A DNA stretch of 64,000 bases from Verrucomicrobiia bacterium (GCA_963664225.1 OY760937.1:960001-1024000); one strand, 5' to 3'; numbered from the stretch's first letter, positions 6,670 through 10,519 are shown. Notes: generated by a model not told the origin, from the letters alone. Numbers and translations are program-made.

Positions 6670-8202
6670 CTACTTCGACTTGATGATGCGCCTGGGACGG
6701 GACTTATTTGTTGGCGCAGCCACGGGGATATAGAGTTCGAATGCAGATCCGGCGCCCCATTGGCTGGACACCTCAATCCAACCTTTATGCTGCCTGACGA
6801 TGTCGCAGACCGTTGGCAATCCAAGACCGACCCCTTTGCCGGGATCCTTGGTGGTGAAGAATGGCTCGAAGATGCGCGGCAAGTGCGCTGGCGCGATACC
6901 CGTTCCGGTATCGATGAAACTCAGGCGCACGAATTCGCCGGCCCGGGCTTCGGGATGGGCCTGCGCGTCGGATTTATCAAAACGGACTTTTTCTGTTTTA
7001 ATGTGCAATTTTCCTCCGGATTGCATGGCGTCGCGTGCGTTGATAACAAGGTTGAGGAGGACCTGTTCAAGCAAGCCGACGTCCGCGAGGACGCGGGGCA
7101 GTGCCGGTGCTGGCTCAAATTGCAGATCGATTTTTTCCCCGAGTATGCGTTGCATTGTCTTTCCCAAGCGCTCAATTTGCGGGTTTAAATCCAGCACTGT
7201 GGCGTGGAAGTTCCTCTTGCGGCCAAAGTCGAGCAATTGGCGCACCATTTTAGAGGCGTTTTCAGTGGCGAGGACCATCTCGGCAACGCACTCGACGGCT
7301 TCGGGGCCAAGTTTATCGCGCTCCAATTGGAGAAGGCTGGCATTCGCACGAATGACGGCAATGAGATTGTTGAAATCGTGGGCCAGTCCAGCGGCAAGCT
7401 GACCGATCGCTTCCATTTTCTGCGATCGGCGCAATTGCTCCTCCAGGCGTTTACGTTCCGTAATATCCCGCACGATGGTTGAAATGCCAATGACCCTGCC
7501 ATCGGAATTTTTTACGGGGGACGCGGTCAGCCAGACATCTATATGCCTCCCATCCTTTGTGACGCGGACCGTCTCAAAAGGTTCCATCGATTCCCCGCGG
7601 GCCACGGCGTTGTGTATGCGCTGAAGTTCCTGGCGGCGGTCGGTTGGAATGACCCGGGCGATTGACTGACCCACAATTTCGGCCGCGGAGTATCCATAGA
7701 TGCGTTCTGCGGCGGTGTTGAAGCTCACCACGATATCATCGAGCGTTTTGCCAATGATCCCGTCATTGGCGGAATCGACAATTGCCGCGAGGCGATCGCG
7801 CTGTTCTTCAAATTGTTTTTGCCGGGTGATGTCACGAACATTGCAGATGATTCCAACGGTCCTGCCCGTGGAGTTGCGCAGCGGCGCGTTCCATTGCGAC
7901 ACCCAGCCGGCGCGCCCCTTCTCAGGAATTCGATATTCAAATGCCAGGCTGGTCGTTTCATTGGTTTTGAGCGTATTAAGCAGTTGTTTTCGGATGGCCA
8001 GATTCCGAAACAATGGGAAGACCTCCACCAAATTGCGTGATAAAACCTCGGAGGCGGCATAGCCTGTGATTTTTTCCATTTCAGGATTCCAAAACCTGAA
8101 ATTGAGCTTTCGATCATAAACGATGATCCCTTCCTGGATGCTGGAAACGATCTGGGCGTTCAGCTGACTGGATTCGCGCAAGGCCTCCTGTGCCTGGGGG
8201 TG
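6670..8202 (-). pseudogene. 3' part of an IS110-interrupted multi-PAS sensor histidine kinase (2 PAS + HisKA + HATPase, no receiver)
   Basis: H-box LAHDFNN, NLVINARDA, DTGTGI, FEPFFTTK, GVGLGL. It is in the same frame as the 5' fragment at 9817-10224. The track ORF start (8235) lies inside the IS end. Confidence 0.85.
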
Positions 8203-8253
8203 AGTTGTTCTCTGTGTTGTAAAATGGTTTTTCATAAAAGTTATTCACCAAAA

Positions 8254-9504
8254 TTACCTGGCGGTTTTGGTCTGCAGACTCAGCACCCACGAACCATGCA
8301 GCTGCTGGTTTTTGGCATGTATTTCCGGATCGTAGGGCGCGTGGGTTTGGAGCATTTTCCAGATGATTTTGAGCCACCGCTGGCCCAGACACCGCAAAGC
8401 GCAAGCGTGGCTTTTGCCCTCTTCCCGTTTTTTCTGGTAGTAAACCTGTGCCCAAAGACATTTCTTGCGACTGCAATCGCTCCACAGATGCACGGCATGG
8501 CGGAGGAACTTGTCGCAGTGGTGGCGGATGCGGACCTTGTCGATTTGTCCCGATTGATAACTCACAGGAGCCGTGCCCGCAATGCCCTGCAGATGCTGTG
8601 CGCTTTCAAACCGGCCCGACCCGCCGCCGATTTCTCCCAGCAGCCGTGGAGCCAAAAACGAGCCCGCTCCGGGCAGCGAACCGAACAAGTCATGGTCGGG
8701 GTGCTGTGCAAACAAGGCCTGGATTTGCGCGTGATAAACATCCAGTTGCTGCTGCAACGTGCGTAACATTTTGGCCAGGCTCACCGCCAGGGTGCCCTTG
8801 GCCGCCGTCAGGGCCGCCGAGCCGCAAAACTGATCGGCCCGTGCAAAAATGCCCATCCGTTTTTCAGCGGTTTCCGGCCGCCAGAGCTTATGAACGTGCA
8901 GGAACTTTTCCCACCGTCGCTTGCCGGCTTTGACCAGCGCACGAGGCGTTGGAAACTCAATGATGAAATCCCACGCCGAGGCCATGGTCCAATCCTCAAA
9001 GGCCTCCAGGGCCGCCGGATAGTATTCCAAGAGAGCTTGTTGCAATTGATTTACGAACAGCGTGCGCTGACCGATGAGATGAACCTCATCCCGGCAGAGC
9101 ATCTGCAACTGGCTGGTCAGCGCGTCCGTTGGGACCAGCGCTTTCCAACCGTGCCCGTCGATCCGCAAGGCATCGGCCAGAGACCAGGCATCCAGAAAAT
9201 CGGTCTTGCTGCCGCTGGGCACCTTGCGATCCCGATACCGCTGGGCGCTCTTGGGATTGACCGGATAGACCGTTGCCTCCCCCCTCAGGAGCTGGTCCAC
9301 AGCCGTGCCGAAGCTCGTCTCAATGGCCACCGCCAAAGGGGCGAAGGGCGCCGTCTTTTTCCGCCATTGCTCCCAGCCCTCCTGGGAATGCTCGAAGCGG
9401 AACTGTTCCACGATCTTGCCCTCTCGATCGACGATGACCACATCGTGATGATCCCGGGCCCAATCCAATCCGGCAAAACAGGATATCTCCAACCATGATT
9501 TCAT
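8254..9504 (-). CDS. IS110 family transposase / bridge recombinase (416 aa)
   Basis: ATG 9504 with GGAGG RBS. RuvC-like DEDD motifs GLDWARDHHD, VAIETS and KTDFLDA; C-terminal Tnp domain with the catalytic-Ser motif APVSYQSG. Confidence 0.93.
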   Translation of the reverse strand: MKSWLEISCFAGLDWARDHHDVVIVDREGKIVEQFRFEHSQEGWEQWRKKTAPFAPLAVAIETSFGTAVDQLLRGEATVYPVNPKSAQRYRDRKVPSGSKTDFLDAWSLADALRIDGHGWKALVPTDALTSQLQMLCRDEVHLIGQRTLFVNQLQQALLEYYPAALEAFEDWTMASAWDFIIEFPTPRALVKAGKRRWEKFLHVHKLWRPETAEKRMGIFARADQFCGSAALTAAKGTLAVSLAKMLRTLQQQLDVYHAQIQALFAQHPDHDLFGSLPGAGSFLAPRLLGEIGGGSGRFESAQHLQGIAGTAPVSYQSGQIDKVRIRHHCDKFLRHAVHLWSDCSRKKCLWAQVYYQKKREEGKSHACALRCLGQRWLKIIWKMLQTHAPYDPEIHAKNQQLHGSWVLSLQTKTAR

Positions 9505-9517
9505 AGATCCTCCGTTA

Positions 9518-9682
9518 CGGGGCATCGGAGCGCTGTCGTCAGTCAACCTGATACAGGAAGCCTCGCGGGCAATAGTTCTCTCAGACTTTTTGACAGGCGC
9601 CGTCGGACGGGCCGGTAAACTCTCCTCAGTCTTCTTAAGACAAGGGGTGTATGACCGTGATCCATCCGGGGCGATGCCGCCA
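9518..9682 (-). ncRNA. Predicted IS110 bridge RNA (target-binding loop plus donor-binding loop)
   Basis: Outer stem GGCAUCG/CGAUGCC. The target loop, closed by CGGAUGG/CCGUCCG, reads CACCCCU - hairpin GUCUU-AAG-AAGAC - UGAGG. The donor loop, closed by CUGUC/GACAG and AGUC/GACU, reads GAGAACUAUU - hairpin GCC-CGCGA-GGC - GUAUCAG. The guides match the target and donor junctions. Ends are approximate. Confidence 0.8.
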
Positions 9683-9687
9683 GAAGC

Positions 9688-9716
9688 ATTATACTCCGGC
9701 GACAAAAGTTTTTCAC
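9688..9716 (-). promoter_or_regulatory. Sigma70-type promoter for the bridge RNA/transposase: GTGAAA-N17-TATAAT
   Basis: Perfect TATAAT at 9693-9688 (minus strand), 17-nt spacer, 4/6 match at -35, immediately 5' of the predicted RNA. Confidence 0.65.
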
Positions 9717-9816
9717 CGCTCGATTTTTTGGCGGCGGCACAGTTATTCACCGTTAGCTGCGGGGAGCTTCCCGGGGCTCTCCTCGCCAACGGATGATTAC
9801 CTGTGGAAACCGTATC

Positions 9817-10224
9817 AGGGGTGATGTCCTCGAATATCCGCAAAATCAAATTTGCCGAATTTTGGTCCGGCATCCAATGTGTAATCTGAAAGACTTTGTT
9901 GTTACAGAGATCGACCGTTTCCAAGATTCCAGAAAACTTCCGCCCCGTCTGTTTTTTAAATGGGCAATTGGGGCATTTAAGTTTGTCGTCCTTATATGTT
10001 TTCCAGCAGGGGCTGCCGGTTTTTGTATTCGGGAAGAGTTTTTCCAGCGCTTTGTTTCTGAAGACGACACGACCCTTCAAATCGATCAGATCGATGCCAA
10101 TCGGAAAAGCATTGAGCAAGTCGCCATTGAACATCAGGTCTGAAAATTGAGACGACTCCTTTCCTATGTGATCCTGAGCGCCATTGGATTTGCGCGGGTT
10201 TCGTGATTTTGGGTCTCGCTTCAT
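9817..10224 (-). pseudogene. 5' part of the interrupted histidine kinase (Cys-containing PAS domain)
   Basis: ATG 10224 preceded by a purine-rich GAGAGGA. PAS pattern LLNAFPIGIDLIDLKGRVVFRNKALEKLF...ILRIFEDIT ends exactly at the IS junction. Confidence 0.8.
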
Positions 10225-10519
10225 TCCTCTCAAGAAAACAGGCCGTTCTGGCTGGTTTGAGGCAAAAATGCCCACACATGAGACAGCGATCAAGGAGAAT
10301 GTTTTCCGATTCAGTGGGAATTGCGGTTGGTGCAATTTGGGTTCGGATGCATGGAATTCGCGTGAATGATTCTGGTGGCGCGTCATTTGGATTGCCACTA
10401 AAGTGGTCCTGCGATGCGGTCGGTCCGGCGTAAATCGGGCGAAATATGGTTCGACCGATGGTGGAGTAAACTGAGAAGGCATGGAAGACCGCCTTTTTTA
10501 TTATAGCGATAGAGATGAT

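Follow-up and report, generated by a model that had tools for sequence, protein, structure and literature searches.

Within a 64,000-nucleotide (nt) stretch of a Verrucomicrobiia bacterium assembly (GCA_963664225.1, OY760937.1:960001-1024000; hereafter the window, with positions counted from its first letter), the minus strand carries from 9816 to 8203 what we are highly confident is a complete, recently mobile insertion sequence of the IS110 group with an IS621-type bridge RNA in its left end. The element measures 1,614 base pairs (bp) when a single CT core is counted. Its two ends, a 312-nt non-coding left end (9816-9505) and a 49-nt right end (8253-8205), enclose an open reading frame of 416 amino acids (aa), and comparison of relatives places all of the conserved structure in the left end. 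The element splits a PAS/PAS/HisKA/HATPase_c sensor kinase gene (6670-10482, minus strand) that is otherwise continuous: the frame of the kinase runs on across the reconstructed CT site, and the downstream part holds two PAS domains, HisKA and HATPase_c.

The open reading frame encodes a recombinase with the DEDD RuvC-like and Tnp domains of the IS110 group, matching DEDD_Tnp_IS110 (PF01548, 4e-30, full length, 1-155 of 155) and Transposase_20 (PF02371, 6.5e-14) in Pfam. It scores 176.7 bits against a cut-off of 140 with the NCBIfam model NF033542, 'IS110 family RNA-guided transposase', so named that the NCBI family model already calls such proteins RNA-guided transposases. The columns GlD, iE, TDxxDA and SG, which we take to be the catalytic residues, are common to the recombinase and the ISCro4 transposase. 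Among solved structures, the matches are the transposases of IS621 (E 2.4e-6) and, as the best, ISCro4 (PDB 9t56, E 2e-06), both significant only over the Tnp domain; a serine intermediate is mentioned in the accessible part of PMC11208158. Searching one genome per species yielded 36 related loci with 30-68% protein identity, 27 of which carry Verrucomicrobiota or Planctomycetota labels. These labels are no more than consistent with the Planctomycetes-Verrucomicrobia-Chlamydiae (PVC) host lineage proposed in an initial annotation made from the sequence alone. The clade of 416-aa recombinases is patchily distributed, since a match at E ≤ 1e-40 was found in 4 of the 40 relatives searched.

Four full, near-identical copies of the element lie in the genome, which is one 5.78-Mb contig. 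Copies 1 (the window copy) and 2 are identical over 1,616 bases, copy 3 has one difference and copy 4 has nine, none of them inside the two RNA arms, and all four copies encode the same protein. The sequence common to them extends from CT-GATACG to GAGAACAA-CT, outside which they diverge: the flanks read CATCACCC-CT-CACCCCC at the window copy, CCGCACCC-CT-CGCCTTG at the second copy, TTGAACCC-CT-CTCTTGT at the third and TGGAACCC-CT-CTCCTCG at the fourth. In the window, the minus strand reads ...GAGGACATCACCC-CT-GATACGG... across 9830-9810 and ...CAGAGAACAA-CT-CACCCCCAGG... across 8214-8193. A CT core is thereby found at both ends, and the insertion has the precise form left target-CT-element-CT-right target, without long terminal inverted repeats.

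Contigs assembled from public runs were compared with window positions 7900-10100, and in X1, X2 and X5 there are contigs that run straight from 8202 into 9817, leaving out 1,614 bases, with an overlap of two letters, CT. In X2 this empty-site joint lies on a 13,687-base contig at a depth of 10.4, equal to the flank depth, and the element stands at 29.5, about three copies. In X1 the filled junctions (depth 16 and 13.4) and the empty one (depth 11) are represented side by side by short contigs, at a flank depth of ~20-22 and an element depth of 67; contig depths are coarse, and the proportions of filled and empty sites that they give are rough. The window insertion is absent in one data set and apparently polymorphic in another, and because filled and empty alleles of one site occur in one run and the site is empty in another, the element appears to be currently mobile. 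The window copy, identical to copy 2, is the youngest copy. The four copies and the empty-site contigs bear out the element boundaries and the target CATCACCC-CT-CACCC that the initial annotation had reconstructed, all of whose quoted strings were found at their minus-strand coordinates; its reading of an intact IS110-group element likewise fits the recombinase domains, the CT core and the empty site. As for the host gene, the kinase is uninterrupted in the X2 contigs, and both its alleles, filled and empty, are present in X1.

Left ends of 29 loci and right ends of 31 align with the window, and the fold of the putative bridge RNA was compared in those 26 sequences that allowed anchoring of both loops. 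RNAalifold gave two adjacent stem-loops, each made of a large internal loop and a short closing hairpin. Four invariant RNAalifold pairs, between GAAC of the left donor guide and GUAUC of the right donor guide, were kept out of the counts, as they show no variation and overlap with both guides. In the remaining structure 90.4% of cells were paired, compared with 75.2% in column shuffles and 31-48% when partners were slid by 1-3 columns. Changes on both sides were seen in 25 of the 32 pairs, and none of 500 shuffles reached the observed values on any of the five measures. The folding of the RNA into two loops, claimed in the initial annotation together with a suggestion to fold the region with RNAalifold, is thus borne out by covarying pairs in the family comparison. 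Further upstream, a long 5' stem-loop is conserved; RNAalifold on the 5' part of the left end gave its outer stem only, and MAFFT aligns the variable inner part poorly.

The internal loops hold the candidate guides. The right target guide (RTG) was compared in 27 elements with both RTG and right flank, and the left target guide (LTG) in 23; an element was left out of the guide counts if its contig stopped short of the flank or if no loop could be anchored in it (L022; partly L015, L024, L029, L030, L036 and L043). The aligned first loops invariably finish, on their 3' side, with an AG that is immediately followed by (U/A)NNACCGG, and the 5-7 bases preceding this AG read as the reverse complement of the right flank of the same element (for example CACAG-AG against CT-CTGTG in L012, GUCAAG-AG against CT-CTTGAC in L020 and CAAGCUC-AG against CT-GAGCTTG in L027). 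The RTG scored 4.30/5 against the own right flank and 1.71/5 against non-own flanks, with 5/5 in 15 elements, 4/5 in 7, 3/5 in 3 (the window included) and 2/5 in 2. The identity run of the LTG was 5.8 with the own left flank and 1.9 with non-own ones. Neither result was reached in permutations (0/10,000 for each), although permutation figures, here and below, overstate the evidence because the relatives are not independent and include near-duplicates. The covariation of guides with insertion sites in homologues, which the initial annotation had named as a check, is therefore strong for both target guides, and the identity of CACCCCU with the left target, core included, holds both as a string and in the family.

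In the second loop, only the first six bases of the left donor guide (LDG), (G/U)AGAAC, are consistently matched in the family, with frequent mismatches at positions 6-7; across relatives, the guide begins with G or U according to whether the right end has G or T. The 8/10 match between this guide and the left donor had been reported for the window and is literally true, but just those first six bases carry over to the relatives. The right donor guide (RDG) varies in 3 of the 29 tabulated relatives (AUAUCAG, GUACCAG and CUACCAG), and the left ends of these three vary to match. GUAUCAG as the exact reverse complement of CTGATAC, also noted at the outset, is accordingly a conserved feature with covarying left ends. 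Across the clade, the target- and donor-loop segments are predicted to read the flanks and the element's own termini, core included. The order of left guide, hairpin and right guide with a CT core had been ascribed to the IS621 architecture, and it agrees with the accessible part of PMC11208160. In two cases the same guides occur at different loci with the same target, namely at L018 and L025 of one metagenome-assembled genome (MAG) and at L035 and L037 of two MAGs (targets GACACCGCCG-CT-ACAGC and CCGTGGA-CT-GCGG); each of these pairs is a natural replicate of guide-directed site choice.

According to the accessible part of PMC11208158, each right guide (RTG and RDG) is followed on its 3' side by two bases that, once strands have been exchanged, pair with positions 6-7 of the opposite DNA, and these handshake bases must not pair with the cognate DNA. 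Across the elements compared, Watson-Crick pairing with donor position 7 is available to the base that follows the RTG in 27/27, with UU/AA and AU/AT covarying, and pairing of the same kind with target position 7 to the base that follows the RDG in 20/24; each result was met by 0/10,000 permutations. Watson-Crick pairing of the handshake bases with the cognate DNA occurs in 0/24 and 0/27. The second handshake position is matched in 17/27 elements for the target loop and in 1/24 for the donor loop. Being independent of the guide matches, the handshake test supports the view that the clade would work like IS621.

With the corrected register of the RTG argued below, the predicted cognate target is (U)ACACCC-CT-CTCCTCA. 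Near-matches to the 14-mer ACACCC-CT-CTCCTC number 1 within one mismatch (which hits the core T), 25 within two and 372 within three genome-wide. Copies 3 and 4 are inserted in a repeat with the palindromic core CTCTCCCCGCTCGTGCC...GGGGCGAGAG, of which at least 43 members are present when up to 2 mismatches to a 19-mer are allowed, 22 of the 43 with CCCCTCTC just upstream. A CT site with at least 8/14 arm matches was found in 30/43 repeat copies, compared with 207 of 26,970 CT sites sampled genome-wide, and the best unoccupied site, TGAACCC-CT-CTCCTCA, is matched at 12/14 positions with a right arm of 7/7. This enrichment shows the family, similar to repeated extragenic palindromes (REP-like), to be the element's probable preferred landing site; in this it resembles other IS110 members, whose targeting of repeated extragenic sequences is described in the accessible part of PMC11208160. 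Because the cognate target lies in the REP-like repeat, the window copy would occupy an off-target site: the insertion in the kinase gene is a presumed off-target event, at a site that fits well in its left half and poorly in its right half (9/14 arm positions). Off-target insertion of IS621 at half-matched sites is reported in the accessible part of a 2026 preprint.

Two further observations concern the repeat. At G000:C1 ~445710 and ~3214711, two members read GAACAACT where others read GAACCCCT, and the final eight bases of the right end, together with the core, also read GAACAACT; these members could have varied by chance, or recombination could have left a scar or a hybrid site there. Five repeat copies stand within 1.6 kb at G000:C1 3529554-3531110, spaced ~100-1,070 nt apart, all of them unoccupied potential landing sites.

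We infer from the sequence comparison that the RNA would be made, bound and used by the recombinase. The complex would recombine the circular right end-left end (RE-LE) junction GAGAACAA-CT-GATACG with sites like ACACCC-CT-CTCCTCA. In the donor arm, GAGAAC.. would read the terminus of the element's right end and GUAUC-AG that of its left end, around the CT core, and the two bases after each right guide would act as handshake guides for the opposite DNA. Partly matched sites would be used too, such as the PAS/histidine-kinase site in the window. Table 1 collects the features on which this scheme is built.

Table 1. Coordinates of the element, its insertion site and the predicted segments of its bridge RNA in the window; functional names of RNA segments are putative.
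Feature	Position	Strand	Remarks
Left target flank CATCACCC, part of the PAS/histidine-kinase gene	9819..9826	-	Empty-site contigs
CT core, left copy	9817..9818	-	2-letter overlap at the empty-site joint
Right donor arm GATAC, first bases of the left end	9812..9816	-	CTGATAC conserved at left ends of relatives
Conserved long 5' stem-loop, outer stem AGGTAATCA ... TGAATAACT	9738..9805	-	24 sequences: 12 outer-stem pairs, 7 with compensatory changes
Internal sigma-70-like site GTGAAA-17-TATAAT (TATAAT 9693-9688)	9688..9716	-	10/12, consensus match only
Putative target-binding arm (outer stem, internal loop, hairpin), 74 nt	9599..9672	-	Helices 1-3, 88-94% of cells paired, 12/17 pairs changed on both sides
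Putative left target guide (LTG) UACACCCCU	9643..9651	-	CACCCCU (9649-9643) identical to top-strand left target and core of the window copy
Hairpin GUCUU-AAG-AAGAC closing the target loop	9629..9641	-	Helix 3, 4/4 pairs changed on both sides
Putative right target guide (RTG) UGAGGAG-AG, reverse complement of CT-CTCCTCA	9620..9628	-	Corrected register; AG at 9621-9620
Putative target-loop handshake guide UU	9618..9619	-	Complementary to donor positions 6-7 (AA of GAGAACAA)
Putative donor-binding arm, 68 nt	9531..9598	-	Helices 4-6, 87-96% of cells paired, 13/15 pairs changed on both sides
Putative left donor guide (LDG) GAGAACUAUU	9571..9580	-	GAGAAC matches right-end terminus GAGAACAA-CT
Donor-loop hairpin GCC-CGCGA-GGC	9570-9560	-	String found at these coordinates
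Putative right donor guide (RDG) GUAUC-AG, reverse complement of CT-GATAC	9548..9554	-	GUAUCAG in most relatives
Putative donor-loop handshake guide GU	9546..9547	-	Its G complements the C at target position 7
Recombinase gene, 416 aa (P0001)	8254..9504	-	Pfam, NCBIfam and PDB matches; GGAGG upstream at 9513-9509
Short right end, 49 nt	8205..8253	-	Holds GTGAATAACT 8248-8239, TTTACA 8223-8218 and left donor arm GAGAACAA 8212-8205
CT core, right copy	8203..8204	-	Copies and empty-site joint
Right target flank CACCC; host gene goes on in frame	8198..8202	-	Empty-site contigs

The register of the RTG departs from that of the initial annotation, in which the guide was UGAGG (9628-9624), pairing with C-CT-CA across the core and making the window site CACCCCTCA the cognate target. 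UGAGG is indeed the exact reverse complement of CCTCA in the window copy, and C-CT-C stands at these positions in 4/4 copies, yet we regard this placement as very unlikely: the literal string match is 3 nt out of register, and when carried to the relatives it scores 5/5 in the window alone and 0/5 in 9/22 elements, with a mean of ~1.6/5 against the 4.30/5 of the AG-ended register, which the relatives fit. In IS621, moreover, every guide includes the core, and the RTG reads the core plus the right arm (accessible part of PMC11208160), as the corrected guide does at the copy 4 site CT-CTCCTCG, matched at CT-CTCCTC, 8/8. Because the invariant AG that reads the CT core forms the last two bases before (U/A)NNACCGG, we set the guide as UGAGGAG-AG, which gives the predicted target stated above in place of CACCCCTCA. 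A more radical alternative dispenses with guides altogether and takes the structured left end for a mere leader acting on the translation or the stability of the recombinase mRNA, the flank matches being by-products of a site preference set by the protein. The region does lie directly upstream of the ribosome-binding site, and regulatory roles of IS110 ends were proposed in earlier literature, according to the accessible part of PMC11208160. A leader function, however, predicts neither the covariation nor the handshake result, whereas the loop segments change with the flanks across relatives while the helices are kept, and the handshake positions follow the opposite DNA partner; we give this explanation almost no credence.

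The bridge RNA interpretation also has to be set against several results that weigh on the other side. The protein is only distantly similar to the IS621 transposase, the similarity being significant over the Tnp domain alone. Folded as a single sequence, 9683-9522 is no more stable than shuffles (z -1.08; 29 of 200 shuffles fold as well), and an Rfam 15 scan of 8000-10100 with E up to 10 returned no family, only three chance-level hits (ES036, sR46 and TUG1_3; E 2-7) far below their gathering scores. Guide matching is imperfect as well: L034 and L040 match the right flank at just 2/5 positions, real sites seldom match the LTG at its guide bases 1-3 (UAC), the guide-predicted 14-mer ACACCC-CT-CTCCTC has 0 exact occurrences in the genome, and the four real sites match the guides at 9, 9, 9 and 10 of 14 arm positions, none in full. 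The near-duplicate pairs L018/L025, L016/L019 and L035/L037 are counted among the relatives. Of the 23 public runs listed for the organism, none is of RNA. Finally, no joint going back from the right end to the left end, as expected of the RE-LE circle junction, was seen in the contigs of X1, X2, X4 and X5, a result that is uninformative either way because contigs drop rare forms.

Where the RNA would start is less clear. The initial annotation had placed its promoter wholly inside the left end, with none forming on circularisation. The internal TATAAT site exists, and it is the sole sigma-70-like site in 8150-9900 (shuffles gave a mean of 0.6, standard deviation 0.7). Its -10 hexamer ends 36 nt before the LTG, and the best internal match ends 36-37 nt before the LTG in 11/24 elements, mostly at 7-9/12. 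The joined right and left ends also give a candidate, TTTACA-17-TACGGT, an 8/12 consensus match whose score has to be read with two facts in mind: its -10-like hexamer TACGGT (9814-9809) overlaps the right donor arm, so that TAC(C/G)GT is constrained in that role too, and a stronger internal site is present. In 17/24 elements, a TTGAAA/TTTACA/TTGCAA hexamer begins at a distance of 20-21 nt from the terminus of the right end. The 5' stem-loop (9805-9738) separates the junction from the internal site, and its place is that of the 5' stem-loop in the IS621 RNA. For IS621, excision reconstitutes a promoter at the junction (accessible part of PMC11208160). Because the position of the junction-spanning site is kept and a conserved 5' stem-loop lies upstream of the internal site, we do not accept an exclusively internal promoter, and both promoters may exist.

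Two arrangements of these promoters were considered. In one, the bridge RNA is made only from the internal promoter (9716-9688), starts near 9681, lacks the 5' stem-loop, and no promoter forms on circularisation. The element's best sigma-70 match, 10/12 with a perfect TATAAT and without a rival in 1.75 kb, would be used, at the 36-nt spacing from -10 to LTG that is common to the best internal match in the 11 elements above, and the predicted start would fall ~10 nt before the first helix. Set against this are the 8/12 site at the RE-LE junction, whose -35-like hexamer keeps its position as in IS621, the conserved 5' stem-loop upstream of the internal site, which resembles that of the IS621 RNA (accessible part of PMC11208160), and the weakness of the internal match in most relatives (6-8/12), all of these sites being consensus matches only; an exclusively internal start is in our judgement unlikely. 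In the other arrangement, which we put forward tentatively and as a possibility short of an expectation, the clade would run two promoters, the junction promoter giving a long RNA with the 5' stem-loop from the circle and the internal one (9716-9688) a short bridge RNA from integrated copies. If true, the internal promoter would supply bridge RNA from integrated copies without host read-through, a self-sufficient control of excision; excision of IS621 depends on read-through transcription, according to the accessible part of PMC13626964.

A motif, GTGAA(T/A)AACT, recurs around these sites. It is present twice in the left end, at 9752-9743 on the 3' side of the 5' stem-loop and at 9718-9709, where it overlaps the internal -35, and once in the right end at 8248-8239 (GTGAATAACT), exactly at -44 from the terminus in ~15/24 relatives. 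Near +18 of the left end stands the complement of the GTGAATAACT motif, and an inverted repeat would thus bracket the circle junction. The GTGAAWAACT motif could be a switch between promoters.

Among known systems, IS621 of E. coli is the closest in organisation. As described in the accessible parts of PMC11208160 (Durrant et al. 2024) and PMC11208158 (Hiraizumi et al. 2024), it likewise has a DEDD RuvC-like and Tnp recombinase, a CT core and ends of unequal length, long on the left and short on the right. Its LTG and LDG read the bottom strand and its RTG and RDG the top strand including the core, a variable first loop reads the target and a conserved second loop the donor, and handshake bases lie 3' of the RTG and RDG. 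The two also share insertion into repeated extragenic sequences and a left donor guide that stops at the C of the core. The differences are in dimension and detail. The IS621 PDB chain has 328 aa compared with 416 aa here, and its target- and donor-binding loops have 65 and 68 nt (accessible part of PMC11208158) compared with arms of 74 and 68 nt. The left end here, at 312 nt, has a much longer 5' stem-loop and a spacer with the internal promoter-like site. The RTG extends 5-7 matched bases beyond the core; wild-type IS621 has 2, or 4 when the core is counted. In ~10 relatives the LTG leaves the second core base unread, and the present system, unlike IS621, is known from sequence alone. ISCro4 (341 aa), the best match of solved structure, shares the D, E, D..D and SG columns, with a weak alignment of the N-terminal domain (i-Evalue 33).

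ISPpu9 and ISPpu10 of Pseudomonas putida (accessible parts of PMC12288879 and bioRxiv 10.64898/2026.03.19.712850) are IS110 copies that likewise sit in a repeated extragenic palindrome; the host lineage and the repeat family differ, and here 2/4 copies are in the repeat and two outside it, one of those in a gene. The tree table of PMC11208160, as far as accessible, has 10 Verrucomicrobia entries. A 12-nt motif of the RNA, in DNA and in RNA letters, was not found in the searchable part of the supplements of that paper. The IS1111 group with its seekRNA belongs to the same recombinase superfamily and follows the same two-guide logic; its RNA lies in a long right end, and subterminal inverted repeats of 7-17 bp are found at the donor (accessible part of PMC11208160). 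Membership of the IS1111 group is ruled out by the 49-nt right end and the position of the RNA in the left end, and the GTGAATAACT motif does not abut the donor.

Taken as predicted, the left end holds a genuine IS621-type bridge RNA in a distant IS110-group clade, operating by a mechanism that is already known and adding no new one. Bridge recombinases are being developed as programmable DNA-insertion tools, and to our knowledge mechanistic understanding comes mostly from IS621 and a few close relatives. Here, sequence comparison alone recovers the LTG, RTG, LDG, RDG and handshake rules in a distant orthologue that is ~90 aa longer. A long right target guide would be in natural use in this element, and the element is a reasonable candidate for bench testing. 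The window copy offers a clean natural example of putative off-target insertion at a partly guide-matched site, and for genome annotation the element explains the split PAS/histidine-kinase gene.

Besides the full copies, the genome holds three solo left-end remnants, L005 (G000:C1:5568848-5569005), L006 and L007, of 157, 60 and 39 nt and 85-87% identity, each starting ...C-CT-GATA. They look like relics of older related copies; L005 retains the 5' stem-loop and the internal promoter-like site and ends ~12 nt into the bridge RNA.

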